Of a DNA stretch of 64,000 nt, positions 8,965 through 28,273 are shown piece after piece. The translations under genes were made by a program, and so were the position numbers. The stretch comes from an uncultured bacterium (GTDB lineage: Bacteria > Sysuimicrobiota > Sysuimicrobiia > Sysuimicrobiales > Sysuimicrobiaceae), in assembly GCA_964437095.1 (NCBI GenBank), contig CAYTFH010000015.1, forward strand, positions 851 to 64,850, in the 5' to 3' direction. Below the pieces are notes generated by a model, which searched no databases, was not told where the DNA came from, and was given only the letters and a program-made list of their open reading frames with translations. Numbering within the stretch: the stretch's first letter is position 1; each line of letters opens with the position of its first letter.

Positions 8965-9015
8965 GCGCGGTTTGACGGGGCCGGACCAGGGGGCTATCCT
9001 CGACCCGGAGCCGCC

Positions 9016-12963: not shown

Positions 12964-14240
12964 GCCGTTCGGAGGAGCTCTTCCGGCGGGCGCGCCGCGT
13001 GATGCCCGGCGGGGTCAGCAGCCCCGTGCGGGCGTTCCGCGCGGTGGGAGGCACACCGCCGTTCTTGGTCCGGGGCGAGGGCGCGTACGTCACCGACGCG
13101 GACGGCCGGCGGTACGTGGACTGCGTCATGTCCTGGGGCGCCCTGCTGCTGGGCCACGCCCACCCCCAGGTGGTGCAGGCGGCCCAGCACGCGGTGGCGG
13201 AGGGGAGCAGCTTCGGAGCGCCCACCCCGTGGGAGGTGGAGTTCTGCGAGCGGATTCGGGCCGCGGTCCCCTCCGTGGAGGTGGTGCGGCTGGTGAGCTC
13301 GGGCACGGAGGCGGTGATGAGCGCCCTGCGGGTGGCGCGGGCCGCCACGGGCCGCGAAGGGGTGGTGAAGTTCGACGGCGGCTACCACGGCCACGTGGAC
13401 AGCCTCCTGGTGCGGGCGGGCTCGGGGGTTGCCACCTTCGACCTGCCCGACAGCGCCGGAGTGCCTCCTCCCGCGGTGCGGTCCACCTTCTCCCTGCCGT
13501 ACAACGACCTGGACTCCGTGCGCCGCTTCTTCCAGGCGCGGGGGGAGGAGGTGGCGGCGGTGCTGGTGGAGCCCGTGGCGGGCAACATGGGCACGGTTGC
13601 CCCGGAGCCGGGCTTCCTGCAGGGGCTGCGGGAACTTTCGGAGCGGTGGGGTGCCCTGCTGGTGTTCGACGAGGTCATCACCGGGTTCCGCTTCCACTAC
13701 GGCGCGGCCCAAGACCTGTTCGGGGTGCCGCCGGACCTCACGTGCTTGGGGAAGGTCATCGGCGGCGGCTTCCCCCTGGCCGCGTACGGAGGGCGGGAGG
13801 ACCTGATGCGCCTGGTGGCCCCCGACGGCCCCGTCTACCAGGCGGGCACCCTGTCCGGAAACCCCGTGGCGGTGCGGGCGGGGCTCGCCACCCTGGCGGC
13901 ACTGGAAGACGGGGACGTGTACCGGCGGTTGGAAGCATTGGGTCAGGCTCTGGAAGAGGGGCTCCGGGACGCGGCGCGTCAGGCGGGAGTCCCGGCGTGC
14001 GTGAACCGGGTGGGATCCATGCTCACGGTGTTCTTCGGCGTGGAGCGGGTGACGGACTACGACAGCGCGAGGAGGTGCGACACCGCGGCGTTCGCGCGGT
14101 TCTTCCACGCCATGCTGGCCCGGGGCACCTACCTCCCCCCGTCCCCCTTCGAGGCGTGGTTCCTTTCCGCGGCCCACGGAGAGGAAGAAGTCGAGCAGAT
14201 CCTCCGGGCGGCCCGCGAGGCCTTCCGGGAGGCCGCATGA
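12960..14240 (+). CDS. hemL: glutamate-1-semialdehyde 2,1-aminomutase
   Basis: class-III aminotransferase fold, N-terminal MPGGVSSPVRAF; ATGA overlap with hemB. Confidence 0.9.
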   Translation: MSRSEELFRRARRVMPGGVSSPVRAFRAVGGTPPFLVRGEGAYVTDADGRRYVDCVMSWGALLLGHAHPQVVQAAQHAVAEGSSFGAPTPWEVEFCERIRAAVPSVEVVRLVSSGTEAVMSALRVARAATGREGVVKFDGGYHGHVDSLLVRAGSGVATFDLPDSAGVPPPAVRSTFSLPYNDLDSVRRFFQARGEEVAAVLVEPVAGNMGTVAPEPGFLQGLRELSERWGALLVFDEVITGFRFHYGAAQDLFGVPPDLTCLGKVIGGGFPLAAYGGREDLMRLVAPDGPVYQAGTLSGNPVAVRAGLATLAALEDGDVYRRLEALGQALEEGLRDAARQAGVPACVNRVGSMLTVFFGVERVTDYDSARRCDTAAFARFFHAMLARGTYLPPSPFEAWFLSAAHGEEEVEQILRAAREAFREAA

Positions 14241-14974
14241 CCCGCGTCCTGGTGGTCATGCCCCTGTACAACGAGGAGGCCACCCTGCAGGAGGTGCTGG
14301 AAGCGGTGCTGCGGTACGCACCTCCCGGTGCGGACGTGCTGGTGGTGGACGACGGCTCCACGGACCGGTCCGCCGAGATCCTGGCCCGGTTCCCGCAGGT
14401 GCGGGTGATCCGGCACCCCGAAAACCGGGGGTACGGGGCGTCCCTGATCGACGGCTTCCGCTACGCCCTGGAGCACGGCTACGACGTGGTGGTGACCATG
14501 GACTGCGACGCTCAGCACGAACCGTACCTCATCCCCGACCTGCTGAGCGCCCTGGAGGGCGCGGACATCGTGTCCGGGAGCCGCTACCTGCCCGGCTCCT
14601 CTCGAGGCCAGGAACCTCCTCCGGACCGGCTGCGCATCAACCGGGAGGTGACCCAGCGGGTGAACACCCTCACGGGCTACCAGCTCACCGACGCCTTCTG
14701 CGGGTTCAAGGCGTACCGGGCCGAGGCGCTGCGGAAGCTGCAGCTGGACGAGCCGTCGTACGGCATGCCCTTGCAGGTGTGGCTGCAGGCGGCGCGCTGG
14801 GGCTTGCGGGTGCGGGAGATCCCCATCGGCCGCATCTACAAGAACCCCCACCGCCGCTTCTGGGGCGGGCTGGACGACCCCGAGGTGCGGCTCCGGTACT
14901 ACCTGGACGTGCTGGAGCGGGAGGCGGCCCGCTGGCTCCAGCGGGCGGCGCCCTCCGGGGAGGGAGGGCCGTGA
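14237..14974 (+). CDS. family-2 glycosyltransferase (DPM1/GtrB-like)
   Basis: VVDDGSTD and DCD(xQH) GT-A motifs; ATGA overlap with hemL. Confidence 0.8.
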   Translation: MTRVLVVMPLYNEEATLQEVLEAVLRYAPPGADVLVVDDGSTDRSAEILARFPQVRVIRHPENRGYGASLIDGFRYALEHGYDVVVTMDCDAQHEPYLIPDLLSALEGADIVSGSRYLPGSSRGQEPPPDRLRINREVTQRVNTLTGYQLTDAFCGFKAYRAEALRKLQLDEPSYGMPLQVWLQAARWGLRVREIPIGRIYKNPHRRFWGGLDDPEVRLRYYLDVLEREAARWLQRAAPSGEGGP

Positions 14975-15651
14975 AGTCGGTCCTGGTCCTCGCCCCCCAC
15001 CCCGACGACGCGGAGATCGCCATGGGCGGCACCATGGCCGCGCTGGTGGCCCAGGGCTGGCGGGTGGTGGTGTGCGACCTCACGGACGGGGAGCCCACGC
15101 CCGTGGGCACCCCCGAACGCCGTAGGCAGGAAGCCGCCCAGGCCGCCCGCATCCTGGGCGTGGAGCGCCGCATCCTCGACCTGCCCAACCGGTTCCTCCT
15201 GGACGAGGTACAGGCGCGGAAGAAGGTGGCCGCGGTGATCCGGGAGGTGCGGCCGGACTGGCTGTTCGTGCCGTACTGGGAGGACGCCCACCCCGACCAC
15301 GTGCAGGCCGCGTCCCTGTGCGAGGCGGCTCGGTTCTACGCCAAGCTCACCCACACCGACATCCCCGGAGACCCCCACTACCCACGCCGGGTGGTGCACT
15401 TCTTCTCCACCCACTACCGCATGGTCCGCCGTCCGTCCTTCGTGTTCGACATCAGCGACACCCTGGAGCGCAAGATGGAGAGCCTGCGCGCCTACCAGAG
15501 CCAGTTCGGACCGGAGCGGGGGAACTCGTGGGTGCTGGACGCGGTGCGGGACGCCAACCGCTACTTCGGCCGCCTGGTGGGCGTGCAGTACGGCGAGCCC
15601 TTCCTCCTGCGGGAGGAGCTGGGGGTGCGCAGCCTGGAGGCGCTGGTGTGA
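14971..15651 (+). CDS. PIG-L/LmbE family N-acetylglucosaminyl deacetylase
   Basis: APHPDDAEIAMGG zinc-site motif; GTGA overlap with GT2 gene. Confidence 0.8.
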   Translation: MKSVLVLAPHPDDAEIAMGGTMAALVAQGWRVVVCDLTDGEPTPVGTPERRRQEAAQAARILGVERRILDLPNRFLLDEVQARKKVAAVIREVRPDWLFVPYWEDAHPDHVQAASLCEAARFYAKLTHTDIPGDPHYPRRVVHFFSTHYRMVRRPSFVFDISDTLERKMESLRAYQSQFGPERGNSWVLDAVRDANRYFGRLVGVQYGEPFLLREELGVRSLEALV

Positions 15652-17183
15652 CGGACCTGCAAATCCCCACGCGGCACGGGGAGGTGGCGTGCGTCCCGGA
15701 GCTGGGCCGGTGGCTGGAGGTGGCGGAAGCCAACGCCCGGCGGCTGGAGCAGGCGCAGATCCGGGGCCAACCCCTGGGGGCGGTGCGGGCGCAGGCCCGC
15801 CAGGAACTGGTGGCCTGCAGCCGCCAGCTGTTGGGCCGCTGGGGCCTGCCCGCGCCCGAGGTGTCCGCAGGACCGTGGGTGGCCACCGGCCACCAGCCGA
15901 CCCCGTTCCACCCGGGCATCTGGGTGAAGACGTGGGGCGTGGACGCGTGCTGCGCCCGCGGGGCGACGGGCCTGTACGTGGTGGTGGACTCTGACGAGTG
16001 CGAGCGGTGGACGGTGCGGGTCCCGCGGCGGGACGGCTCCCTGCAGGTGGCGGAGCGGGTGCTGGTCTCCTGCGGAGCCGAGGTACCCTTCGAGGCGGCT
16101 CCACCGCCGGAGGAGGCGGCCTGGCGGGGGTTCTGCGCCCAGCTGTCCCAGGACCTGGCAACCCTGCGGCTGCCCGAGCTGGTGGAGCGTCTATCCCGGG
16201 CGGAACGGGCGGGGCTGGAGAGCGTACGGTGCGCTCGGAACCTGGGCGAGTTCGGAGCCGCGCTGCGCAGGCGGCTGGAACTGGGCTGCGGGTCCGTGCG
16301 GTACCTGGAGGTGACCGTGTCGCAACTGGCGGGCACCGGCGCGTTCCGCCACTTCGCGGGCTGGATCGCGCAGCACGCGGAGCGCTTCTGGGAGTGCCAC
16401 AACCGGGCCCTGGACCAGTACCGCCGGGAGGAAGGTCTGAGGTCTGCCGCCCAGCCCTTCCCCAACCTGCGGAAAGAGGGCGACCTGGTGGAGCTGCCCT
16501 TCTGGCTCGTGTGGGGCGGGCGCCGGCGTCCGGTGTGGGCGCAGACGGGGAGGGGTGACCCCGTGCTGGTGTGCGACGGAAGGCCTGTGGGCACGGTTCA
16601 CGACCTGCCCCGGGAGCTGAGGCCGCGGGCCCTGACCCTCACCCTGTTCTTGCGGCTGGTGGTGTGCGACCTGTTCGTTCACGGCCTGGGCGGCGCCCGC
16701 TACGACCGCGTCACGGACCGGGTCATGCACGAGTTTTTCGGCACCCCGCCGCCCCCCTTCGCGGTCCTCACCGCCACCTTCCACCTGCCCCTGGCCCGCC
16801 ACCGGGACCCCCAGGCGGAGTACGCTGCCGCCCACCGGAAGTGGCTGGATCTGCACCACAACCCGGACCGCTACCTGCCCCGGGACGGCGAGGTGGCAGC
16901 ATTGGTGGAGGAAAAGTGGCGGTGCATCCAGGCCCTGAACGCCCCGGACCTGCCCCGCCGCAGCCGCCGGGAGCTCACCCAGCGCATCCGGGCCATCAAC
17001 GATTGCCTCCGGCAGCACCTCCAGGACGTGATCCGCGAGGCGGAAGCGGAGCTTGCGGCGTTGCGCCGCGAGGTGGAAGAGCACCAGGTGGCCACCGACC
17101 GCGGCTACCCGTTCTTCCTGTTCGAGCCCGAGGAGGTGCGGGCGTCCGTGGCGATGGCGGAGGGAGTGCGGTGCGGCCGGTAG
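15648..17183 (+). CDS. hypothetical soluble 511-aa protein, possibly distant BshC-like (speculative)
   Basis: GTG overlapping LmbE stop; coiled-coil C-terminus; weak GHQP...HPG resemblance to BshC GGQQ region; no TM segments. Confidence 0.5.
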   Translation: MTDLQIPTRHGEVACVPELGRWLEVAEANARRLEQAQIRGQPLGAVRAQARQELVACSRQLLGRWGLPAPEVSAGPWVATGHQPTPFHPGIWVKTWGVDACCARGATGLYVVVDSDECERWTVRVPRRDGSLQVAERVLVSCGAEVPFEAAPPPEEAAWRGFCAQLSQDLATLRLPELVERLSRAERAGLESVRCARNLGEFGAALRRRLELGCGSVRYLEVTVSQLAGTGAFRHFAGWIAQHAERFWECHNRALDQYRREEGLRSAAQPFPNLRKEGDLVELPFWLVWGGRRRPVWAQTGRGDPVLVCDGRPVGTVHDLPRELRPRALTLTLFLRLVVCDLFVHGLGGARYDRVTDRVMHEFFGTPPPPFAVLTATFHLPLARHRDPQAEYAAAHRKWLDLHHNPDRYLPRDGEVAALVEEKWRCIQALNAPDLPRRSRRELTQRIRAINDCLRQHLQDVIREAEAELAALRREVEEHQVATDRGYPFFLFEPEEVRASVAMAEGVRCGR

Positions 17184-17848
17184 ACCCCGTGGTCACGGAG
17201 GGCCTGGGACGTCGCTTCGGCCCCGTGGTGGCTCTCGAGAACGTGTGGCTGCGGGTCCACCAGGGCCAGGGCTTGCTGCTGGTGGGGCCCAACGGCTCGG
17301 GCAAGACCACCCTGCTGCGGGTGCTGGCCACCGCCTTGCGGCCCAGCCCGGGAAGGGCGTGGGTCTGCGGGTACGACGTGACTTCCGAGGGCCACCGGGT
17401 GCGGGAGGTCTGCGCGTACCTGGGTACTTCCCCGGGCCTGTACGGGGCCCTCACGGGGTGGGAGAACCTCTGCCTGGCCGCGGACCTGTGCGGCCGGCCC
17501 CGCGCCGCGGCCCGGGACGCGCTGGCGTGGGCCGGCATGGAGTCGGTGGCGGGTAGGCCCGTGGGGACGTACAGCCTGGGAATGCGGCGGCGGCTGGCGC
17601 TGGCCCGGGTGTACCTACAGCAGGCCCGCGTGCTGCTGCTGGACGAGCCCTTCGTGGGCCTGGACGACCCGGGCGTGCGCCTGGTGCGGGAACTCGTGGA
17701 AGACACAAAGCGCCGTGGCGGCGCCGTGGTGCTGGCCACCCACGACCGGGACCGGGCCCTCGGACTGTGCGAGGCCGTGGCGGAGCTGCAGTCGGGCCGT
17801 CTGCGACCCGCCCTTGCGGGTTTGGCCGCGGTGAGGGCCGAGCGGTGA
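17171..17848 (+). CDS. ccmA: haem exporter ATPase CcmA (ABC)
   Basis: Walker A GPNGSGKTT; degenerate signature YSLGMRRRLALAR; followed by ccmBCDE. Confidence 0.8.
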   Translation: MRPVDPVVTEGLGRRFGPVVALENVWLRVHQGQGLLLVGPNGSGKTTLLRVLATALRPSPGRAWVCGYDVTSEGHRVREVCAYLGTSPGLYGALTGWENLCLAADLCGRPRAAARDALAWAGMESVAGRPVGTYSLGMRRRLALARVYLQQARVLLLDEPFVGLDDPGVRLVRELVEDTKRRGGAVVLATHDRDRALGLCEAVAELQSGRLRPALAGLAAVRAER

Positions 17849-18498
17849 GGGCGTGGCGGCGGGCGGTGGCCCTGGCCCGCAAGGATCTGCTGCTGGAGTG
17901 GCGGGTGCGGGACGCCCTGCTGCCCGCGGGCACCTTCGGCCTTGCGGTGCTGCTGGTGCTGGGCTTGGCCTCCGGCGGAGGCCCCGAGGCCGCGGCACCC
18001 GTGCTGTGGGTGTCCGTGTCCTTGGCCGCGGTGCTGGCCGTGGGCCGCACCACCGAACGGGAAGGGGAAGAGGGGACCTTGGAGGCGCTGCTGTTGTACC
18101 CGGGAAGCCGGGAAGACCTGTTCTGGGGCAAGTGGATGGCCCTGGCGAGCCTGGTGGCGCTGCTGGCCGCGGCCCTGTGGTGCGCGCAGGCGGTCTTGTT
18201 CGGCGCGGGCGTGCGGGCGTGGGGACCCTTCGCCCTCACCGTCCTGCTGGCCGCGTCGGGCCTGGGGGCGGTGGGCACCTTGCTGGCGGCGGTGCTGTGG
18301 AGCGTGCGGGCTTCCCGCCTGTTGCTGCCCCTGTTGTTCCTGCCCACGGCGCTGCCGGTGCTGCTGGCGGGCGTGCGCCTCACGGAGGCCGCGTCGCTGG
18401 GGGCCCCCTCGGGCCCCTGGCTGGGGGTGCTGGCCGCGTTCGACCTTCTGTTCTTGCTGGTGGGACCCGCGCTGTTCGAGGCGGTGGTGGAGGGCTAA
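17845..18498 (+). CDS. ccmB: haem exporter membrane protein CcmB
   Basis: 6-TM ABC-2 permease at the ccmB position; GTGA overlap with ccmA. Confidence 0.75.
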   Translation: MRAWRRAVALARKDLLLEWRVRDALLPAGTFGLAVLLVLGLASGGGPEAAAPVLWVSVSLAAVLAVGRTTEREGEEGTLEALLLYPGSREDLFWGKWMALASLVALLAAALWCAQAVLFGAGVRAWGPFALTVLLAASGLGAVGTLLAAVLWSVRASRLLLPLLFLPTALPVLLAGVRLTEAASLGAPSGPWLGVLAAFDLLFLLVGPALFEAVVEG

Positions 18499-19137
18499 GT
18501 GAGAGCGTTCCTGACCGGCGGGACCATGGCCCTGCTGTGCGCGGGGCTGTTCCTGGGCCTGTGGGCGTCCCCGCCGGACGCGTACCAGGGAGAGTACGTG
18601 CGGATCATGTACGTGCACGTGCCCGCCGCCCTGGCCGCGTACGCCGCGGCGGCGGTGGCGTGCGCCACCGGAGCCCTGTACCTGTGGCGGCGGCGGGTAG
18701 ACTACGACCTCGTGTCGCACGCGGGTGCGGAGCTAGCGGCGTTGTTCAGCGCGCTGACGTTGCTCACGGGGATGCTGTGGGGAAGGCCCGTGTGGGGGGT
18801 CTGGTGGGCCTGGGACGCGCGCCTGGTGAGCACCGCGGTGCTGTTCTTCCTGTACGTGGGGTCGCTGCTGGTGCGGGGGCTGGCGGAGGACCCCGACCGC
18901 GGGCGCAGGCTCGGCGCGGCGGTGGCGGTGGTGGCGTTCCTGGACGTCCCCCTGGTGCACTACTCGGTGGTGTGGTTCCGCACCCTGCACCAGGGGCCTT
19001 CCATCAGCCTGCAGGGTGTGAGGATCGCGCCCGAACTCCTCCTGCCGCTCTCGGTGAACGTGGTGGCCTACCTGAGCCTGCTCAGCTGGCTGCTCGTGGA
19101 GCGCAGCCGCCTCGCTCGGGCGGAGGCACAACCGTGA
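18499..19137 (+). CDS. ccmC: haem exporter protein CcmC
   Basis: WWD domain WGVWWAWDARL plus conserved His-containing loops. Confidence 0.85.
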   Translation: MRAFLTGGTMALLCAGLFLGLWASPPDAYQGEYVRIMYVHVPAALAAYAAAAVACATGALYLWRRRVDYDLVSHAGAELAALFSALTLLTGMLWGRPVWGVWWAWDARLVSTAVLFFLYVGSLLVRGLAEDPDRGRRLGAAVAVVAFLDVPLVHYSVVWFRTLHQGPSISLQGVRIAPELLLPLSVNVVAYLSLLSWLLVERSRLARAEAQP

Positions 19138-19262
19138 GCCCATGGGTGTGGGTGGCGTCCGCTTACGGGTGCGCGGCCCTGCTGGTGGGCGGATACGTGT
19201 GGTGGCTGCGGCGCAGGCTGCGCCGCGCCGCCTCGCGCGGGAACCAGGAGGTGGAGGGGTGA
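19134..19262 (+). CDS. ccmD: haem exporter protein CcmD (42 aa)
   Basis: single TM plus RRRLRR tail; GTGA overlaps at both ends. Confidence 0.6.
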   Translation: MSPWVWVASAYGCAALLVGGYVWWLRRRLRRAASRGNQEVEG

Positions 19263-19642
19263 AGCGTCTGCGCCTGGTGGCTGCGGTGGCGGTGGTGGTG
19301 GGCGCCCTGGGCTACGTGGTGGCCGGTGGCCTGCGGGAGTCGGTGGTGTACTACGTCACCCCCACGGAGCTGCGCTCCGGCAGCGTGGACGTGCGTCGGC
19401 CCGTGCGGGTGGGAGGGCAGGTGGTACCCGGGTCCCTCCACCGGGACGGCGGCACGGGGGAGCTGCGCTTCGTCCTCTCCGACGGCCGCACCACCCTGCC
19501 CGTGCGGTTCCGCGGGGACGTGGCGGGGCTGTTGGTCCAAGGTCAGGGTGCGGTGGTGGAGGGCCGGCTGGACCCGGACGGATCCTTACGGGCCCACACG
19601 GTGGTGGTCAAGCACTCCGAGGAGTACCGGCCGCCGCGCTAG
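19259..19642 (+). CDS. ccmE: cytochrome c maturation haem chaperone CcmE
   Basis: N-terminal TM, OB-fold, C-terminal VKHSEEY haem-binding His/Tyr motif. Confidence 0.8.
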   Translation: MKRLRLVAAVAVVVGALGYVVAGGLRESVVYYVTPTELRSGSVDVRRPVRVGGQVVPGSLHRDGGTGELRFVLSDGRTTLPVRFRGDVAGLLVQGQGAVVEGRLDPDGSLRAHTVVVKHSEEYRPPR

Positions 19643-19800
19643 CGGCTTGACGCGGGGGCAGTCCGGTGCGGAAAATCGTGGCCGGACCTTCACGGCGGGG
19701 GCCCGGCGGGGCCCTTGCGCGTTTTTCGGGCTCGCGAGAGAGGAGTCCGGGTCCCGGAAGTCAAAAACACACGCCGAGTTCACGGGTTTCAGGAGGCACC

Positions 19801-20700
19801 TTGCGCCGACGCCAAGCCGGGCCCCTGTGCGGCCGGCGGCCCCGCGCGGCGGGCCCCGGCGGGTTGCTGCTGGTGGCCGTCCTGTTCCTGGCGGGCTGCC
19901 AGCCCTACGTCCGCGTCAGCACTGCGGCCCGGGAGGCCTACCAGCCCCTGGAGGGGTTCGCGGTGCGCATGAACTTCATGCCCCGTAAGCCCGACGCGGA
20001 CGCGGGCAAGAAGATCTACGAAGCCCGCTGCGCCGTCTGCCACGGGCCGGAAGGGCGCGGGGACGGCCCCATGGCCCAGCAGCTCACCGCGCCGGAGAAG
20101 AACCCGTACACGGACTTTCTGAGCCTGTTCCGGATCCACCCGAAGACGGAACCCCTGCCGAGCCGTCCCGCGCGGTTCAACAACCTGGACCAGATGCGGC
20201 TGAACGCGCCCTTTGCCATGTTCGAGACCATCGCCCGGGGCCGGCCCCACACCGCCATGCCGGGGTTCCAGCACCCCGCCTACGGGGCCGTGGACGGGGG
20301 CGAGCCGAGGTTGTCCGACCAGGAGATCTGGGGCGTGCTGTTCTGGGAGTGGAGCCGGACCACCAGCCGTGAGCGCCTGGCACAGGGGCGGCGGATCTAC
20401 AACGAGATGTGCGCCAGCTGCCATGGGGTCCGCGGCGACGGCAACGGCCCGGAGGCCGCGAAGATCCGGGAGGAAGTGTGGACGTGGGCGCGGGGCGTGG
20501 GCCCCGGTATTTTCACCGACCGGGACTGGATGGCGTACCGTAAGCCCACGGAGCTGTACCAGAAGGTGGCCGAAGGGGTCCGGCGCCGCGGGCTGGAGCT
20601 CATGCCCGCGTACGCGGACAAGCTCACCCCGGACCAGATCTGGACCGTGGTAGAGTACCTGTGGACGTTCGTGTACACGCCTCCCCGGGAGATGCGGTAG
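19801..20700 (+). CDS. dihaem cytochrome c lipoprotein
   Basis: two CxxCH motifs (CAVCHG, CASCHG); lipobox LAGC; TTG start after AGGAGG (alternative ATG at 19666). Confidence 0.75.
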   Translation: MRRRQAGPLCGRRPRAAGPGGLLLVAVLFLAGCQPYVRVSTAAREAYQPLEGFAVRMNFMPRKPDADAGKKIYEARCAVCHGPEGRGDGPMAQQLTAPEKNPYTDFLSLFRIHPKTEPLPSRPARFNNLDQMRLNAPFAMFETIARGRPHTAMPGFQHPAYGAVDGGEPRLSDQEIWGVLFWEWSRTTSRERLAQGRRIYNEMCASCHGVRGDGNGPEAAKIREEVWTWARGVGPGIFTDRDWMAYRKPTELYQKVAEGVRRRGLELMPAYADKLTPDQIWTVVEYLWTFVYTPPREMR

Positions 20701-20719
20701 GCGTGCCGAGGGTGAACGG

Positions 20720-21364
20720 GTGAACCGGAGGACGTTCCTCAAGCTCCTGAGCGCAGTGCCCGCGTTGGGGGCCCTGGGCGCGTTCCTGGCCCCGGTGCTG
20801 CGGTACCTCAAGCCGAACCTGGAAGCCGGCTTGGGCGTCCCCAAGGGTAAGGTGGTGCCGGACCTGGCCGAGGGCGACCTCCCCAAGGGGGAAGCCCTGC
20901 CCATCGCCACCCTGGAGGAGCTGCGGGAGCCGTGGTCCAGCAAGTTCTTCGTGTTCACGCAGAAGTACCCCCAGTACACGCCCGAGCAGGCGAAGGCGGC
21001 TACGGTACCCGGGGTGGCCGTCAAGCTGCCGTGGAAGCTGTCGTTCCCGGGCTACAAGGGGGGCAAGGAGCCCACGGACATCGTGGTCTTCTCCCGCATC
21101 TGTCCGCACCTGGGCTGCATCTTCAACTACGTGCCCAACTGGCGGGAGGTGACCGCGGGCTACGGCGGGTACGTGCCGCCGGAGGACCGCCGCCACGGGC
21201 TGATGGCCTGCCCGTGCCACCTGTCCATCTATGACCCCGCGGACCGGGAACTGCCCGGTCGGGTGCTGTCGGGCCCCGCGCCCCGCCCGCCCCGGTTCTT
21301 CACCTACGAGATCCGCGACGGGGTCATCGTGGTGACCGGCGCGGAGCCCGGCGGGATCGCCTGA
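20720..21364 (+). CDS. Rieske [2Fe-2S] subunit of a cytochrome bc/b6f-type complex
   Basis: Tat motif RRTFLK; CPHLGC...CPCHLS Rieske boxes. Confidence 0.9.
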   Translation: MNRRTFLKLLSAVPALGALGAFLAPVLRYLKPNLEAGLGVPKGKVVPDLAEGDLPKGEALPIATLEELREPWSSKFFVFTQKYPQYTPEQAKAATVPGVAVKLPWKLSFPGYKGGKEPTDIVVFSRICPHLGCIFNYVPNWREVTAGYGGYVPPEDRRHGLMACPCHLSIYDPADRELPGRVLSGPAPRPPRFFTYEIRDGVIVVTGAEPGGIA

Positions 21365-21376
21365 GGGGGCTTCGGG

Positions 21377-22525
21377 ATGTGGGACCGGCTGCGGGAGTGG
21401 TTCCGGGAGCGCAAGGAGAAGCTGGACCTGTTCGACGAGACCCGCGTGGACCGGCAGGACAACCCCCTCTACATCCTCGGGCAGATCGTGTACTTCTCCT
21501 GGATCGCGGTGGTGGTGAGCGGCATCCTGCTCATGATCTGGTACGAGCCCACCGCCCACGGCGCGTACAACTCCATCCTCCGGATCCAGCGGGAGATCCC
21601 CTTCGGCTGGCTCATCCGCGGCGTCCACAAGTACGGCGCGGACATGCTCATCCTGGCCATCACCCTCCGCATCTACCGGATGTACTTCCTCGGCGAGTAC
21701 AAGCGGCCCCACGAGCTGTCGTGGATGATCCTGTTCGGGTCCCTGGTCCTGGCCATGATCTCCGGCCTCACGGGCTACCTGCTCATCTGGAACCAGCGGG
21801 CCTTCTGGGCCGCCAAGGTGGTGCTCACCGTGGCGGTGTACCTGGACCAGTTGCCCCTGGTCGGCCAGACGCGGTTCGGCAGCGCCATCGCCTTCGCCTT
21901 CCTCGGTGGGCCCGCGGAGGGGCAGGGGACCCTCACCCGCTTCTACGCCATCCACTTCGGCATCTCCGCCCTGTTGCTGGTGGCCACGGAGGTGTACTTC
22001 TACTTCACCCGTAGGCGCCGGTTCGTGCTGTCGCCTGCGGCCCTGGTGATCCTCGCCCTCATGCTGGTGGTCACCAGCTACGTGTTCCCCGCGGAGATGG
22101 GCCGGCGCGCCGATCCCAACCGCACCCCGCTGCCCATCCTGTCGGACTGGTACTTCCTGGCCCTGTACCAGTACGTGAAGTACACCCCGCCCCTGTGGGC
22201 GGGCCTGGGGCCGGGCCTGCTCATCGCGTACGGCATGCTGGTCCCGTTCCTGGACCGCAGCAAGGGCCGCCGGCCCTCGGAGCGGCCCTTCTTCACCGTG
22301 GTGGGCGTGATGGCCCTCACCTACTTCCTGGTGTTTACCGCCCTGATCATGTTCAACATCGCGGTGATCGGCCGGGACCCGCACGTGGTGCTGCTGGTCA
22401 CCGCGGCCACCCTGACCTTGGGCCTGGCGCTGGAGCTGCGCTACCGGAAGCGCAGGAAGCTGGCGGAGGCCGCCGCTCCATCTCCCGCGCCGCGGCCCGC
22501 CCCGGCCCGGGCCACGGCGGGGTGA
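21377..22525 (+). CDS. cytochrome b (b6 fused to subunit IV), atypical: n-side haem ligands absent
   Basis: [14 protein letters not shown] and TLTRFYAIH align to PetB, but the second His of each pair is Arg and Tyr; SDWYF subunit-IV motif. Confidence 0.85.
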   Translation: [382 protein letters not shown]

Positions 22526-22529
22526 AGCG

Positions 22530-22793
22530 GTGGACGTGGCCCGGTTCGCTGCGTCCTTTCTGGCCGCGGTGCTGAGCCTGCACGAGACCGTGCGGGCCCT
22601 CCGGGGGGCGTGGCTGCACCCGGCGCCCGATCGGTGGCTGCTGGCGGCGGGCTGGCTGGTCCTGGCAGCGGCCTCCGGGCTGTGGGCGGGGTACGTGGTG
22701 TACGCGGCGGACCGCCGGTCCGGACGCGTCCGCCGCCGGGTGGCTCTGTACGAACGGTGGATGGCGGCGCAGCGGGGAGGGAGGTGGCCGTGA
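22530..22793 (+). CDS. small two-TM membrane protein (possible bc-complex small subunit)
   Basis: GTG start 5 nt after cyt b stop; two hydrophobic helices. Confidence 0.45.
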   Translation: MDVARFAASFLAAVLSLHETVRALRGAWLHPAPDRWLLAAGWLVLAAASGLWAGYVVYAADRRSGRVRRRVALYERWMAAQRGGRWP

Positions 22794-22984
22794 ACGGACC
22801 CGGCCGGTACCTGGCCCTGGCGGGCTTCCTGGCGGCGGTGGGCCTGGTGTGCGTGGCCCTCATGGTGTACGGCGAGTGGACCGACCGGCGCCTGGTGGCC
22901 TCCGGCGCCGTGGGCGTGCTCCTGGTGCTGTACGCGGCCATCGTGGTCCTGTTCCGGAAGGCGCACCTGACCGCGGAGGAGTGA
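22790..22984 (+). CDS. small two-TM membrane protein (64 aa)
   Basis: GTGA overlap with preceding ORF, GGGGAGGGAGG RBS; two TM helices. Confidence 0.45.
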   Translation: MNGPGRYLALAGFLAAVGLVCVALMVYGEWTDRRLVASGAVGVLLVLYAAIVVLFRKAHLTAEE

Positions 22985-22985
22985 G

Positions 22986-24161
22986 GTGTACCGGCGGATC
23001 CTGAGGGGACTGCAGAGCGCCACCCTGCGGGTGGACGTGTGGATCAACGGGGTCCTGCCGCAGGATTTCAACCCCCTGTACTACACGGGCGGTCTGAGCA
23101 ACCTGTTCCTGACCATCCTGGTGGTCTCCGGGATCCTCATCTTCCTGTACTACGAGCCCAGCCTGGAGGGGGCGTACGCCTCCGTGGAGTTCCTGACCCG
23201 GGACGTGCCCTACGGGGTGGTGTTCCGCGGCATCCACCGGTACGCCGCGGACGCCTACCTGGTGGCCATCCTCCTGCACCTGTTCCGGAACTGGTTCACC
23301 GACCGCTACCGGGAGGCCCGGGACAGCCAGTGGCTGTCGGGGATGTTCCTCCTGGTGGTGTCGGCCTTCACGGGCTTCACCGGGTACCTACTGGTGTGGG
23401 ACGAGCGGGCGCAGCTGCTGAGTAGCCTCACGGTGCAGGCCCTGCGGTCGGTGCCCCTGGTCGGGCCCTGGCTGGCCCAGGTGTTCCTGGGCGGCCCGGG
23501 GGTGAGCGACACCACCCTGCCGCGCTTCCTCTTCCTGCACATCGGGCCGGCCATGACCCTGTACGTGCTCCTGTGGTGGCACTACGTCCGGCTGCGCCAC
23601 CCCAAGATCTGGCCGCCCGCGGTGTGGGTCCTGTTCAGCCTGGGATTGCTGTTCATCCTGGCGTCCGCCCTGCCTGCGGCCAGCGGCCGGCCCGCGCAGC
23701 CCGGCGCTTCCCCCGAGGGGTTCCCGGTGGACTGGTTCTTCCTGTGGCCGTACGTGCTGGCCCGTTGGATGGCCCCGGGTTGGGCCCTGGCCCTGGTGGC
23801 GGCCCTGGTGGCGTACGGCATGGTGATCCCCTACACCCTGCGGGAGACCCCGGAGGAACGGGAGGTGCGGGCCCTGGGGCAGGCGGTGGTGGTGGAGGAG
23901 AACTGCACCGGCTGCGATCTGTGCTACTACGACTGCCCGTACAACGCCATCTACATGGTGCCCAGCCCCTACCCGGGCAAGAGCCGGGCCGCGGCCAACC
24001 GCAAGCTGCTGGCCGTGGTGGTGGACTCCCGGTGCGTGGAGTGCGGCATCTGCATCGGCGCATGCCCCTTCGAGGCTCTGGAACTTCCGAGGATGTTGGA
24101 CAAGGACGTGCAGGAACGCATCCGGCGGGGGGCCCAGGCACCGGCCCCCGCCACCCCGTGA
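22986..24161 (+). CDS. cytochrome b (b6 + subunit IV-like) fused to a C-terminal 2x[4Fe-4S] ferredoxin domain
   Basis: all four haem His retained (IHRYAADAYLVAILLH; LHIGPAMTLYVLLWWH); CTGCDLCYYDCP and CVECGICIGACP motifs. Confidence 0.85.
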   Translation: MYRRILRGLQSATLRVDVWINGVLPQDFNPLYYTGGLSNLFLTILVVSGILIFLYYEPSLEGAYASVEFLTRDVPYGVVFRGIHRYAADAYLVAILLHLFRNWFTDRYREARDSQWLSGMFLLVVSAFTGFTGYLLVWDERAQLLSSLTVQALRSVPLVGPWLAQVFLGGPGVSDTTLPRFLFLHIGPAMTLYVLLWWHYVRLRHPKIWPPAVWVLFSLGLLFILASALPAASGRPAQPGASPEGFPVDWFFLWPYVLARWMAPGWALALVAALVAYGMVIPYTLRETPEEREVRALGQAVVVEENCTGCDLCYYDCPYNAIYMVPSPYPGKSRAAANRKLLAVVVDSRCVECGICIGACPFEALELPRMLDKDVQERIRRGAQAPAPATP

Positions 24162-24170
24162 GGCAGGACC

Positions 24171-24596
24171 ATGGCCACCGTACCGGAGCGAACTCCCAGC
24201 CCTGACAGCCCGCCCCGGGTGGTGGGTTTCCTGTGCGACTGGGCGGTGCGCAGCGAGGGATTGCTGAACCCCGACGACACCCTGGTGGGCATGCCTCACG
24301 TGACCGTGATCCGGGTGCCGTGTTCGGGGTTCGTGAAGCCCAGCTGGCTGGAGCTGGCCCTCCGCAGCGGCGCCGCGGGGACCTTCGTGTGCGGTTGCCC
24401 CATGGGGGACTGCCTGAACCGGGAGGGCAACTGGATCATCGAGGACCGCATCGACCAGCTCCGCAAGCGGCTCAGCCGTCAGAAGGTGGACCCCGATCGG
24501 GTGGCCTTCTTCGCCTACGGCCTGCACGACCGGGAAGCCTTCCTGCAAGCGGTGGCGGAGTTCGTGGAGCGGCTGCGGTCGGGAGGGAAGCGGTGA
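24171..24596 (+). CDS. MvhD/FlpD-like iron-sulfur protein (hydrogenase delta-subunit family), standalone
   Basis: FLCDW...VIRVPCSG...VCGCPMGDCLNREGN matches the FlpD Cys pattern (5 of 6 Cys). Confidence 0.75.
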   Translation: MATVPERTPSPDSPPRVVGFLCDWAVRSEGLLNPDDTLVGMPHVTVIRVPCSGFVKPSWLELALRSGAAGTFVCGCPMGDCLNREGNWIIEDRIDQLRKRLSRQKVDPDRVAFFAYGLHDREAFLQAVAEFVERLRSGGKR

Positions 24597-24709
24597 CGCG
24601 GTTTGGCCCCAAGCGGTGGAGGACGTACCTGTGGTACGCGGTGTTCTACCTCCTGTTCTTCGCCCTGTTGCTGTTCGTGGCGGCCTTCGGCCTGGTGGCG
24701 GAGGCGTAG
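24593..24709 (+). CDS. 38-aa single-TM peptide (FixQ/CcoQ-like position)
   Basis: GTGA overlap with MvhD-like stop; YLWYAVFYLLFFALLLFVAAFGLV helix; directly precedes CcoN-like gene. Confidence 0.4.
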   Translation: MTRFGPKRWRTYLWYAVFYLLFFALLLFVAAFGLVAEA

Positions 24710-24723
24710 GCCCGGAGGGACGG

Positions 24724-26115
24724 ATGCTGGTGTGGATGTTCACGGACGAGCGGTGGAGTTCCGCCCGGCGCTTCCTGTACACGGGCGCCCTGTGGGGACT
24801 CGTGGCCCTGGCGTACGAGGTCCTGGTGGCCCTGCAGCGAGCCTGGCCCCAGCTGCTGGCGGACGTCCCCTGGGCTGCGCACGGGCGGGCGGTGGCGGCG
24901 GCCCACGACCTGTGGGTGTACGGGGTCCTCTCGAGCTTGCTGGTGGGAGCCGCCCTTCGGGTGGTGGGCCAGGGCGACCGGGAGGGGCTGTGGAGCGAGC
25001 CGCTGGCGAACCTGAGCGTCTGGCTGTGGAACCTGGCCCAGGTGTTGGGCTGGTGGTGGTTGTCCGTGGGCTGGACCCGGGGCCGGCCGGGGGCCGAAGC
25101 GCCCTGGCCGGTGGACCTGCTGCGGCTTGCGGCGGGGCTGCTGCTGCTGTGGGTGGTCCGCAGGACCCTCGCCCGCAATCCCCGCCGGGAGCCGGGGCTC
25201 GCCCTCCTCGCGGTCGCCTTCACCGCCTTCCCCTTGGTGCTGGTGCTCGGCAAGGGGCTGTTCTGGCCCTTCGACAACCCGTACCGGGGGGTCGTGGACG
25301 CCCTGGCGCAGGCCTTCCTGCGGGCGGGCTTGGTGTGGCTGTGGCTGGCGCCCCTGGCCAGCGGGGTTTCCCTGTACGTCCTGGCAGCCTTGGGCGGACG
25401 TCCGGGGCTGTCGGAGGGGCTGGGGATGGCCGCGGTGACGGGTTTTGCGGGGTTCGGCGCCCTCGCGGGCCCCTCGGCCTTCGTGTGGGGCCCGATCCTC
25501 TTCTGGGTGCAGACCCTGGGTGCGGTGGCGCAGGCCCTGTTGCTGCTGCCGGTGGCCACCGTGCTGACCGGTGCGGTGCGGTCCCTGGAGGGGAGCTGGC
25601 ACGGGCCCGGTGACCACCCCGGGGTGGCCCTGGTGCTGGCGGGGCTTGTGGCCGTGTTGTGCGGCGCCGCCGCCTCTGCGCTCGCCTCCGTGGCGGGCCC
25701 CAGCCGGGTCATCCACCTTTCCGCCTGGCTGGAGGGAACCAGAGCCCTGACGGTGGGCGGTCTGAGCGCGGTGGCGGCGGGGTGCACGTACCTGCTGACC
25801 CCGCACGTCCTGGGGCGGGCCCTGGCCAGCAGGAGCCTGGCGTGGCGGCACCTGTGGCTCGTGGTGGGTGGCTGGGCGGTGGGCGTTCCCGCGCTGCTGC
25901 TGGCGGGGTTGAGCCAGGGAGCGGTGTGGGCCACGGGCACGGTCCCCTTCGCCCACTCCGTGGAGGCCGCGCGGCCCCTGCTGGCGGCGGGCGTGACGTG
26001 GGCAGTGCTCGGGTGGGTCGGACAGGCGGTGTTCGCGTGGAACCTGTTCCTGACCGCGGACTCAGGGGAGCCGGTGCCCGCGGCGGAGCAGGAGCTGGCG
26101 CCCGTGGCGGGCTAG
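24724..26115 (+). CDS. cbb3-type oxidase subunit I (CcoN) homologue lacking the CuB/high-spin haem His ligands
   Basis: N-terminus ALQRAWP...PWAAHGRAVAAAHDLWVYG aligns to CcoN helix I-II; 12-TM hydrophobicity; no HH pair anywhere; WWYGHN region is WWWLSV. Confidence 0.7.
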   Translation: MLVWMFTDERWSSARRFLYTGALWGLVALAYEVLVALQRAWPQLLADVPWAAHGRAVAAAHDLWVYGVLSSLLVGAALRVVGQGDREGLWSEPLANLSVWLWNLAQVLGWWWLSVGWTRGRPGAEAPWPVDLLRLAAGLLLLWVVRRTLARNPRREPGLALLAVAFTAFPLVLVLGKGLFWPFDNPYRGVVDALAQAFLRAGLVWLWLAPLASGVSLYVLAALGGRPGLSEGLGMAAVTGFAGFGALAGPSAFVWGPILFWVQTLGAVAQALLLLPVATVLTGAVRSLEGSWHGPGDHPGVALVLAGLVAVLCGAAASALASVAGPSRVIHLSAWLEGTRALTVGGLSAVAAGCTYLLTPHVLGRALASRSLAWRHLWLVVGGWAVGVPALLLAGLSQGAVWATGTVPFAHSVEAARPLLAAGVTWAVLGWVGQAVFAWNLFLTADSGEPVPAAEQELAPVAG

Positions 26116-26125
26116 GAGGCGTCGG

Positions 26126-26587
26126 GTGAGGGACCCTGTGATCCCTGTGGTGCGGTTCGTGGTGGCCGCGGTGCTGTGCGGTTTTCTGGCCACGGTGCTG
26201 CTGCCGAGGCTGGACCCCGCCGTCCGACCCGCCCGCGCTGCGCCCCTCGGGCCGCAGATCCAGCGGGGCCGGTGGGTGTACGTCCGTGAGGGCTGTGTGG
26301 CCTGCCACACCCAGCAGGTGCGGGCGGTGGAGGCCCGGTTCGGGGTGGTGCGGGGTCAAGGGGACGTGGGAGAAGCTTCCGGGCCCGCCCAGTACGCGGG
26401 ACAGAACCCCGTTCTGCTGGGGTCCTTGCGGCTGGGCCCGGACCTATCCCACGTGGGGGCCCGCAGCCAGGACCCCAACCAGCTGCGGTCGTTGCTGCGG
26501 TCCGGCAGCGTGGGGATGCCGCCGGTCCGGTACCTTTCGGAGTCCGAGCTGTCGGACCTGGTGGCGTACCTGTTAAGCCTGCGCTAG
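26126..26587 (+). CDS. cbb3-type oxidase subunit II (CcoO/FixO)-like monohaem cytochrome c
   Basis: VYVREGCVACHTQQVR and RLGPDLSHVG match CcoO signatures. Confidence 0.8.
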   Translation: MRDPVIPVVRFVVAAVLCGFLATVLLPRLDPAVRPARAAPLGPQIQRGRWVYVREGCVACHTQQVRAVEARFGVVRGQGDVGEASGPAQYAGQNPVLLGSLRLGPDLSHVGARSQDPNQLRSLLRSGSVGMPPVRYLSESELSDLVAYLLSLR

Positions 26588-26623
26588 GACCATGTCCGAG
26601 AAAGGTTCGCGGTTGACGGAATT

Positions 26624-26664
26624 GGGGTCCCCGAGGATCGCGCCTGCGATTCTCGGGGCGGTCT
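26624..26664. repeat. copy 1 of a ~40-nt palindromic intergenic motif GGGGTCCCC..GCGATTCT.GGGGCGGTCT
   Basis: imperfect hairpin CCCCGAGGATCGC/GCGATTCTCGGGG; second copy at 45415..45453. Confidence 0.6.
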
Positions 26665-26674
26665 AGGAGGAACC

Positions 26675-27214
26675 ATGGCGGAGCAGGCCCAGACCGTCCG
26701 TCCCTCTCGGTGGCTGCTGGCCCTGTACGTCCTGCTGCCCCTGTGGGCCGTGGCGTACCTGTTCGTGGCGGGAGGCCTGGTGCAGCCGGAAGTTCAGCCC
26801 GTGGCCCGCACCGTGGAGGGGGTCTCCGTGGGAGCCGGGCCCGTGGTGGACGACCCCGAGCACGTCATGGGCATCCTGGCGGTGGTCCCCGAGGACGCCC
26901 GGGACGACCGGCCGCCGCGGCCCATGACCGAGGCCATGCTGGCCCAGGCCAAGACCCAGTACGACACCCTGTGCGCCGTGTGCCACGGTCCGGAGGGCCG
27001 GGGCGACGGGCCCGCGGGCGCGGCGCTGAACCCCAAGCCCATGAACTTCCACTACCGGTCCTTCCAGGAGCGCATGCCCGTGGGCGCCACCCACTGGGTG
27101 ATCAAGAACGGCCTCGGCAACACCCCGCGGCGCAGCGGCATGCCCGCCTTCGGCCAGCTGCCCGACGACCAGATCTGGGCCCTGGTGGAGTACGTGCGCC
27201 GGCTGGGCCGCTAA
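26675..27214 (+). CDS. membrane-anchored monohaem cytochrome c
   Basis: N-terminal TM, CAVCHG, distal Met (SGMPAF); AGGAGG RBS. Confidence 0.8.
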   Translation: MAEQAQTVRPSRWLLALYVLLPLWAVAYLFVAGGLVQPEVQPVARTVEGVSVGAGPVVDDPEHVMGILAVVPEDARDDRPPRPMTEAMLAQAKTQYDTLCAVCHGPEGRGDGPAGAALNPKPMNFHYRSFQERMPVGATHWVIKNGLGNTPRRSGMPAFGQLPDDQIWALVEYVRRLGR

Positions 27215-27280
27215 GACTGTGTCCGGGAAGACCGTGGCCGTTGGCGATCCCGCCACCGGTGTGACCTGAGGAGGTCTGAC

Positions 27281-28273
27281 GTGGTGGAGCCGCAAGCTCA
27301 GGCGGCCGCGGACCAAGCCCTGGCCGCGGCGTACGCGCCGGTCCGGGAGGACCTGGAACGGCTCCAGCACCTGCTGCGGCGGGAGCTGGCGGCCCACGAC
27401 CCCTTCCTCATGGAGCTGGTCTCCCACGTCCTGCGGACGCGGGGGAAGATGGTGCGGCCCGCCCTGGCGTTCCTGTGCGCCCGGCTGGCGGGTGGGGGCG
27501 GCCCGCACCGGGACCTGGTGGCCGGAGCCGTGGAGCTGATCCACGTGGCCAGCCTGATCCACGACGACGTCATCGACGAGGCGGACCGCCGGCGGGGGCA
27601 GGTGACCCCCAACGCGCGGTGGGGCAACCACGTGGCGGTTCTGCTGGGCGACTACCTGTTCAGCAAGGCCTTCCACATGCTGGCCCGCATCGGCCGGGAC
27701 GACGTGGCCAGCCGGGTGGCCTTCGCCACGGTGCGCATGAGCCAGGCGGAGCTGCTGCAGATCAAGTACGGCAACGCTCCCCACACGGACGAGACCGTGT
27801 ACTTCGCCATCGTGGAGGGTAAGACCGCGCAGCTGGTGTCGTCCGCGTGTGCCGGCGGGGCCCTGGTGGGCGGAGGGCACGGCGACCTGGCAGAGCGCCT
27901 GGGGGAGTTCGGGCTCCACTGGGGCGTGGCCTTCCAGATCACCGACGACACCCTGGACCTCACCAGCGACCCCGAGGTGCTGGGCAAGCCCATCGGCAGC
28001 GACGTGCGGGGCGGCAAGGTGACCCTGCCCCTCATCCACGCCCTGCGGCAGGCGGACGAGGAGGGCCGCAGGAAGCTGGAGGGGTGGATCCGCACGGGGC
28101 AGCTGGAACCCCTGCGGGAGGCCCTGCAGGCGTCCGGGTCGCTGCAGTACGCCCTGGAGGTGGCCCGCCAGCACGCCCAGCGCGCCCTGCAGATCCTGGA
28201 AGGTCTGCCGCCCGGCCCCGAGCGGGACAGCCTCACCACCCTCACGGAGTTCGTGGTGTCCCGGAGGCACTGA
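27281..28273 (+). CDS. trans-polyprenyl diphosphate synthase (hepta/octaprenyl type, quinone side chain)
   Basis: two Asp-rich motifs (LIHDDVIDEAD, ITDDTLD); GTG after GGAGG. Confidence 0.85.
   Translation: MVEPQAQAAADQALAAAYAPVREDLERLQHLLRRELAAHDPFLMELVSHVLRTRGKMVRPALAFLCARLAGGGGPHRDLVAGAVELIHVASLIHDDVIDEADRRRGQVTPNARWGNHVAVLLGDYLFSKAFHMLARIGRDDVASRVAFATVRMSQAELLQIKYGNAPHTDETVYFAIVEGKTAQLVSSACAGGALVGGGHGDLAERLGEFGLHWGVAFQITDDTLDLTSDPEVLGKPIGSDVRGGKVTLPLIHALRQADEEGRRKLEGWIRTGQLEPLREALQASGSLQYALEVARQHAQRALQILEGLPPGPERDSLTTLTEFVVSRRH

Follow-up and report, generated by a model that had tools for sequence, protein, structure and literature searches.

Relation to described haem-copper oxidases

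The histidine ligands of the haem-copper oxidases are held to be universally conserved, a view stated explicitly in a 2024 survey of the superfamily (Murali et al. 2024, PMC11214002). In a 64,000-nucleotide stretch of DNA from an uncultured Sysuimicrobiota bacterium (GenBank assembly GCA_964437095.1, contig CAYTFH010000015.1, positions 851 to 64,850; ~72% G+C, and referred to here as the window) we found a gene for a homologue of CcoN, subunit I of the cbb3-type oxidases, that by alignment retains none of these ligands.

The window protein resembles the CcoN of P. stutzeri cbb3 oxidase (PDB 3MK7) in its full-length homology and its fold of 12 transmembrane (TM) helices, and in being followed by a CcoO-like monohaem cytochrome and then by a c-type cytochrome. 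It differs in lacking the six ligand His, Tyr251, E122, R57, R437 and the proton-path residues. The genes around it are also unlike those of a cbb3 oxidase: the CcoO-like protein has only 153 residues, the third subunit is monohaem rather than a dihaem CcoP, and there are no ccoGHIS genes near the CcoN-like gene, the flanks being occupied by a polyprenyl synthase, a histidine kinase and an ANTAR regulator. A cbb3 operon would carry a CcoO monohaem subunit beside CcoN, which is found here, and a dihaem CcoP with the assembly genes ccoG/ccoI, which are not. The bc1-cbb3 supercomplexes of P. aeruginosa (8SMR) and R. capsulatus (6XKW) likewise bring Rieske/cytochrome b proteins together with CcoN/CcoO, and their CcoN chains are among the best structural matches to the window protein. 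Their CcoN, however, is an active oxidase encoded in its own operon, whereas the window gene lies inside a Rieske/cytochrome b operon and its association is known from genes alone.

Inactive paralogues of catalytic subunits are kept as structural subunits in several respiratory systems, for example ActF beside ActC in alternative complex III (ACIII), the core proteins of mitochondrial bc1, and CydA' in archaeal CydAA'. These are alike in that a homologue of the catalytic subunit was kept after its site was lost, but they belong to other protein families.

Within the haem-copper oxidases, OccS of 'Ca. Dechloromonas occultata' (bioRxiv 10.1101/695007) is a homologue without most CuB ligands and without proton channels, although it keeps haem-binding His, of which the window protein has none. 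The gNOR and other divergent families (Murali et al. 2024, PMC11214002) belong to the same superfamily and have altered active sites; in the window protein, by contrast, all of the ligands are replaced and no site is left. No site-less structural paralogue of a haem-copper oxidase subunit I is on record in the literature that we searched. We also found no description of ligand-free CcoN homologues in full-text literature, a search that left aside subscription papers (e.g., early ones on ACIII gene clusters), so a prior mention is possible. The paper describing Sysuimicrobiota (PMC11604079) makes no mention of cytochromes or cbb3.

A CcoN homologue without cofactor ligands

24724 to 26115, + strand: CcoN-like 12-TM protein of 463 residues with none of the six His ligands

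The gene starts at the ATG at 24724, 7 nt behind a GGAGGG, and MLAWMF is the N-terminus in every orthologue. Homology to the haem-copper oxidases was evident from a Pfam COX1 match with an E-value of 9.8e-24 to residues 50–458 of the submitted query (the 499-residue open reading frame (ORF) 24616-26115, longer than the 463-residue protein), from a phmmer match of the protein itself to P. stutzeri CcoN (3mk7_A; E=6.3e-24 over residues 12–451), and from HHalign profile-profile alignment to the canonical C-family (probability 100%, E=3.5e-56, 448 columns). Against the NCBIfam ccoN equivalog TIGR00780 the protein scored 82.1 bits, below the cut-off of 583.15. An AlphaFold model (pLDDT 85, pTM 0.90) had 12 TM helices and matched the 3MK7 CcoN with a TM-score of 0.88–0.89, and cbb3 CcoN chains overall with 0.87–0.89 (Foldseek), compared with 0.77–0.81 for cNOR and ~0.71–0.82 for the listed A- and B-family subunit I chains. 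These results show that the protein keeps the 12-helix haem-copper-oxidase fold, together with detectable sequence homology to CcoN.

We compared the ligand columns by phmmer, by MAFFT, by hmmalign to a canonical C-family hidden Markov model (HMM), and by HHalign. All four methods agree that the six metal-ligand His and the cross-linked Tyr are gone. The correspondences, from P. stutzeri CcoN numbering to residues of the window protein, are as follows.

H60 (low-spin haem b axial ligand): A60
H207 (CuB): A201
Y251 (cross-linked active-site Tyr): G245
H257 / H258 (CuB): S251 / A252
H345 (high-spin haem b3): gap or T339
H347 (second low-spin haem b axial ligand): R340 or A341

The alignments thus show the loss of all ligands for the low-spin haem (the pair H60 and H347), for the high-spin haem and for CuB, along with Y251 and the K-channel-analogue residues. 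Assignment to NorB (cNOR or qNOR, with a haem His and an FeB site of three His and Glu) fares no better, since those ligand columns are empty as well. Also missing are R57 and R437, which partner the haem propionates, and E122, which binds Ca2+, and the C-family proton-path residues T215, S240 and Y317 are not kept. Retention of the canonical proton channel was considered and rejected, given the loss of these three residues and Y251 in the alignments.

A first-pass annotation of this DNA had described an HH-less homologue of cbb3 subunit I with no adjacent His pair in its 463 residues. The homology held in our alignments and in the structural comparison (TM-score 0.89), and the protein has neither HH nor HxH among its 8 His. 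The proposal that the helix-II His is retained did not survive: His61 is one residue out of register with CcoN H60, and only 4 of the 19 orthologues share it, the position being W, Q, S, L, A, R or V in the remainder. We accordingly rejected the idea of a low-spin haem kept through His61, which was off register in three alignments. Every alignment also rejected the suggested pairing of WWYGHN with WWWLSV; WWYGHN corresponds instead to AQAFLRAG. None of the four methods recovered the three CuB His and the high-spin haem His. Because no His is invariant among the 19 orthologues, and one of these (P0018) has 2 His altogether, an alignment that restores them cannot exist.

A replacement active site was sought by comparing the canonical enzymes with the ligand-free proteins found in the search described below. 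The columns conserved in at least 85% of the canonical set include R57, H60, E122, H207, N208, T215, Y251, H257 and H258, and further S276, Y317, H345, H347 and R437. In the ligand-free set the canonical-specific columns have no consensus (top residue frequency 0.15–0.37), and the only group-specific changes in this column comparison were F53 to Y/H and S240 to A. Residues common to both sets are W24, P42, G54-R55, G116, E125, P265, W267, Y363, P367 and N454 (CcoN numbering). As the canonical-specific columns are without consensus, no new site appears to have taken the place of the old one, and on the evidence of the alignments the oxidase site is abandoned rather than rebuilt. The annotated view of a catalytically dead haem-copper-oxidase scaffold is therefore well supported, with ligands, Tyr, R57/E122/R437 and proton-path residues lost without a conserved alternative.

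It is conceivable, if distinctly improbable, that the protein is still a redox enzyme or electron carrier that holds haem or metal through non-His ligands in a new active site. Unusual ligation is hinted at by the sister-group protein P0025 (locus L023), in which H60 and H345 are replaced by Tyr and H258 and H347 are kept; D62 and E337, both acidic and invariant in the window clade, lie close to what was once the haem region. Set against this, the ligand positions vary in the window clade and in 91 further proteins that have one or none of the six His, with Ala, Gly, Ser, Gln and Arg occurring and no residue exceeding the low frequencies given above; the window protein contains just 3 Met and 2 Cys; and the residues for the haem propionates and Ca2+ have gone together with the His.

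Conservation and selection

Public homologues at 46–100% identity amounted to only 19 clusters, from metagenome-assembled genomes (MAGs) labelled GAL15, bacterium HR32 or Armatimonadota. A genome scan yielded nine loci, including those of Ca. Sysuimicrobium, Ca. Tepidifontimicrobium and Ca. Sysuimicrobiota, all of phylum CSP1-3/GAL15 (PMC11604079). Gene order is identical in the nine Sysuimicrobiota loci from ccmB through the ANTAR regulator, the CcoN-like ORF is intact and full-length in 19/19 orthologues and 9/9 loci, and 90 columns are invariant among homologues down to 46% identity. The ratio of nonsynonymous to synonymous substitution rates (dN/dS) for the gene was 0.09–0.16 for close pairs and 0.09–0.23 overall. 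Values for its neighbours were 0.03–0.06 (cytochrome b), 0.05–0.09 (Rieske) and 0.07–0.13 (MvhD-like), and for the downstream partners 0.21–0.28 (CcoO-like) and 0.14–0.24 (cytochrome c). The CcoN-like gene is under purifying selection, less tight than that on the cytochromes b.

These values bear on whether the gene is a decaying, functionless cbb3 remnant, a pseudogene in progress. Such a remnant might be expected to have lost all of its catalytic residues, as this one has, and the gene is evolving faster than its operon partners (44–75% identity, vs 73–95% for cytochrome b). We nevertheless regard decay as very improbable and reject it on the low dN/dS of close pairs, the intact full-length ORFs and the conserved synteny; the 90 invariant columns also stand against it, as does the persistence in distant lineages of comparable ligand-free proteins, each with a CcoO partner.

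Ligand-free homologues in other lineages

The first-pass annotation had suggested looking for the HH-less clade in other genomes, and in doing so we found ligand-free CcoN homologues to be a broad group present in several phyla, a group that the annotation itself had missed. A profile of the window clade searched against 1.84 billion representative proteins gave 1564 matches at E<=1e-3. We scored the 19 orthologues and the best 150 of these matches against the canonical HMM and kept the 163 sequences of at least 400 residues (19 + 144). Of these, 87 lack every one of the six His and 28 retain the full set; counting those with a single His as well as those with none gives 110. Proteins of the ligand-free kind are labelled 'cbb3-type cytochrome c oxidase subunit I' by both NCBI and JGI.

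The CcoN-like protein is always co-encoded with a haem-binding CcoO-like cytochrome. In all nine of the other genomic contexts that we inspected, a FixO-like gene bearing one CXXCH lay downstream or was fused, usually with a further monohaem cytochrome c. In P0110 (L017 8201-10114), P0117 and others of 630–680 residues from Actinomycetota-type contigs the ligand-free CcoN-like and FixO-like parts form one protein, and this fusion supports a direct physical partnership of the two. The trio of CcoN-like, FixO-like and cytochrome c genes directly follows ActA-B-C-D-E-F of ACIII in L014 (an Opitutae genome), L019 and L020, with junctions that overlap or span 10 nt. In L019 (9001-19452) the ACIII genes and the ligand-free trio are followed, 330 nt on, by a canonical cbb3 operon encoding a COX1::FixO fusion with all six His, FixP (with FixP_N), FixG, a DsbD-like protein and a CcoI-type ATPase. 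Since this genome has a canonical cbb3 beside the trio, the ligand-free set is more than a defunct oxidase of this organism. In L017 and L021 (Acidimicrobiia/Actinomycetota) the trio is divergent from an operon of Fer4, cytochrome b, Rieske and cytochrome c genes, and the L010 trio has Fer4-cytochrome b and ccm genes nearby, CtaA/CtaB/COX2/COX1 forming a set apart from it. Three features are common to the window, L010, L014, L017, L019, L020 and L021: a CcoN-like subunit that keeps no more than one of the six His, a FixO-like gene with CXXCH that is adjacent or fused to it, and a location in or next to a Rieske/cytochrome b or ACIII gene cluster.

L018, an Armatimonadota-labelled MAG, has the window's gene order, and its protein P0022 keeps only the H60 and H207 equivalents (2/6 His). 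The same genes, cytochrome b::Fer4 and FlpD among them, are arranged in a different order in L023, a Bacillota-like MAG, where P0025 is encoded at 9001-10416. P0025 and its relatives P0030, P0036, P0059 and P0114 make up the sister group of the window clade, with Tyr at the H60 and H345 positions and, in some, H258 and H347 kept. As judged from these residues, they may be intermediates in ligand loss or may have an unusual Tyr-ligated haem site. Canonical sequences fell between two ligand-free groupings in a neighbour-joining tree, a distance tree of a query-biased sample from which independent losses cannot be counted. Four other profile matches (P0024, P0026, P0028 and P0029) are otherwise canonical C-family proteins in which Met replaces H347 (pattern HHYHHHM); His/Met ligation has been noted for nNOR (Murali et al. 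2024, PMC11214002).

The Rieske/cytochrome b operon of the window

In the window the CcoN-like gene is part of an 11-gene + strand Rieske/cytochrome b operon, which the first-pass annotation had also overlooked. The other members are as follows.

19666 to 20700, + strand: dihaem cytochrome c, first gene of the operon (Pfam Cytochrom_C and Cytochrome_CBB3, two stretches; conserved in 9/9 loci)
20720 to 21364, + strand: Rieske iron-sulfur protein with Tat signal (Pfam Rieske, TAT_signal)
21377 to 22525, + strand: cytochrome b with b6-like N domain and subunit IV-like C domain (Pfam Cytochrome_B, Cytochrom_B_C)
22530 to 22793, and ~22712 to 22984 within ORF 22610-22984, + strand: two small conserved ORFs (tblastn matches in most of the nine loci)
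22986 to 24161, + strand: second cytochrome b6-like protein fused to a C-terminal 2x[4Fe-4S] ferredoxin (Pfam Cytochrome_B and Fer4 families)
24171 to 24596, + strand: MvhD/FlpD-like iron-sulfur protein (Pfam FlpD, E=1.3e-24)
24593 to 24709, + strand: 38-residue single-TM micro-protein, VTRFGPKRWRTYLWYAVFYLLFFALLLFVAAFGLVAEA (same-frame ORF intact in 9/9 loci)
26126 to 26587, + strand: short (153-residue) CcoO/FixO-like membrane-anchored monohaem cytochrome c with CVACH (Pfam FixO, E=5.8e-15)
26675 to 27214, + strand: membrane-anchored monohaem cytochrome c in the slot of CcoP in a cbb3 operon (Pfam Cytochrom_C, Cytochrome_CBB3)

From the Rieske gene to the CcoO-like gene the intergenic gaps are short or overlapping, and there is a promoter-like site at 19647-19676, at the start of the operon. 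A lipobox-like LAGC lies inside the first ORF, 19666..20700, so the true start of the dihaem cytochrome c is probably later. The Rieske and TAT_signal matches of the second gene are weak, both falling under the curated cut-offs, and the protein is 68–94% identical across loci. The annotated succession of a CcoO/FixO homologue and a monohaem cytochrome c downstream of the CcoN-like gene was correct, each having one CXXCH. The CcoO-like protein aligns to CcoO residues 16–120 of 3mk7_B and 8smr_F; the following cytochrome c has no FixP_N domain and is 58–86% identical in the loci. The 38-residue ORF, between the MvhD-like and CcoN-like genes, is 63–94% identical across the nine loci, and its GTG start overlaps the preceding stop codon. 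It recalls small subunits of the CcoQ/CcoM type, by position only. Neither of the two small ORFs at 22530-22984 has a Pfam match; L023 has two small ORFs at the equivalent place.

The cytochrome b6-like::ferredoxin fusion is ExtP-like by NCBIfam, matches cytochrome b6 in the PDB (E=6e-28), and is 75–93% identical in the loci. It keeps both His pairs and has an extra membrane segment with a PEWY-like 'VDWF'. In the cytochrome b at 21377-22525 the expected Qo-site PEWY/PDWY is 'SDWY' (…PLPILSDWYFLALYQ…), where the first-position Ser seems unusual. The MvhD/FlpD-like gene is conserved in all nine loci and is also found in L018 and L023. With the fusion gene it makes a pair (22986-24596) that travels with Rieske/cytochrome b in all Sysuimicrobiota loci, L018 and L023; L010, L017 and L021 have separate Fer4 genes ahead of cytochrome b. 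The gene content points to a Rieske/cytochrome b complex that has an Fe-S exit or entry on its cytoplasmic side, and possibly a heterodimeric cytochrome b. We found no description of such an arrangement of cytochrome b::ferredoxin and MvhD/FlpD with Rieske/cytochrome b in the literature searched.

Genes around the operon include the following.

9016 to 10302, upstream: hemA
12849 to 14240, upstream: class-III aminotransferase, likely hemL
17767 to 19642, upstream: ccmB/C/E
27281 to 28273, downstream: polyprenyl synthase

The region from 9016 to 28273 is thus a respiratory supercluster of haem biosynthesis genes, ccm genes, the 11-gene operon and the polyprenyl synthase. A 621-residue ORF at 15318-17183 has no Pfam match at E<=1e-5.

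Proposed role of the CcoN-like protein

We consider it probable that the CcoN-like protein is a cofactor-free structural paralogue of CcoN, serving as a scaffold for c-type cytochromes on a quinol:cytochrome c oxidoreductase. It would bind neither haem nor copper and reduce neither O2 nor NO. Its conserved periplasmic face would hold the membrane-anchored CcoO-like monohaem cytochrome as CcoN holds CcoO, and together with this cytochrome, the next monohaem cytochrome c and the 38-residue helix it would make up a haem-c-only 'pseudo-oxidase' module. The module would dock on the Rieske/cytochrome b complex of the same operon, or on ACIII elsewhere, and would extend or organise a high-potential chain of c haems through which electrons leave, or possibly enter, the quinol-oxidising complex. 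The chain would lead to real terminal enzymes encoded elsewhere; coxABC is reported to be widespread in Sysuimicrobiota (PMC11604079). The first-pass annotation had regarded the scaffold as used purely for electron transfer, and here we disagree. With the low-spin His not conserved and the second axial His absent, the 12-TM protein is most likely without a redox cofactor and so unable to conduct electrons, which, going by the ligand columns and the CXXCH motifs, are most likely carried only by its partners, the CcoO-like monohaem cytochrome and the next cytochrome c.

The pattern of conservation within the protein is informative in this regard. Invariant residues make up 36% of the periplasmic loops vs 17% of the TM helices and 20% of the cytoplasmic side, and TM7, the expected His-His helix, is the least conserved helix, with 0/22 invariant positions. 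Within the membrane the Sysuimicrobiota clade has the invariant charges D62, D131, R134, D192 and E337. Several points weigh against a scaffold role. The link of the module to the Rieske/cytochrome b complex is genetic only, and in L015 the CcoN-like/CcoO-like pair is next to complex I and a multihaem cytochrome, not complex III. The CcoO-like protein has its own TM anchor, so anchoring alone hardly justifies a 12-helix protein, and the five invariant charges could have an ion- or ligand-binding role.

The last two points lead to a different possibility, a live one though rather unlikely: that the haem-free 12-TM protein was repurposed as an ion- or proton-conducting, or a quinone- or lipid-binding, coupling subunit, like the antiporter-like subunits of complex I. 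This would account for purifying selection on so large a membrane protein, which seems not to be needed as an anchor, and for the intramembrane charges (D62, D131/R134, D192, E337), and the haem pockets, if empty, could admit quinone or water. On the other hand, the C-family proton path through T215, S240, Y317 and Y251 is lost, no charged residue of the clade is conserved across the wider ligand-free group, and conservation is strongest in the periplasmic loops, not in the membrane core.

Extending the scaffold reading beyond Sysuimicrobiota, we suggest more tentatively that ligand-free CcoN-like/CcoO-like/cytochrome c trios may form a widespread, unrecognised 'pseudo-cbb3' class, integral to quinol:cytochrome c oxidoreductases. 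In Sysuimicrobiota, Armatimonadota-labelled MAGs and Actinomycetota the host would be a Rieske/cytochrome b complex, and in Verrucomicrobiota and others it would be ACIII. In each the trio may be an oxidase fossil that was kept, perhaps more than once, for an architectural, electron-relay or coupling role.

Implications

When metabolism is reconstructed from genomes, cbb3 genes are routinely taken as a sign of high-affinity O2 respiration. Such a conclusion would be wrong for CSP1-3/Sysuimicrobiota and for some of the Verrucomicrobiota and Acidimicrobiia. If the 'pseudo-cbb3' class is real, many database 'cbb3 oxidases' that are used to infer microaerobic respiration would not be oxidases. A large group of proteins under selection without any ligand His would mean that the haem-copper-oxidase fold has a second, non-catalytic life. 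The fixed position of these genes in Rieske/cytochrome b and ACIII operons points to an undescribed set of complex III-type subunits and, where the pseudo-oxidase genes occur with those for cytochrome b::ferredoxin and MvhD-like proteins, to a respiratory complex of an uncultivated phylum that has yet to be characterised.

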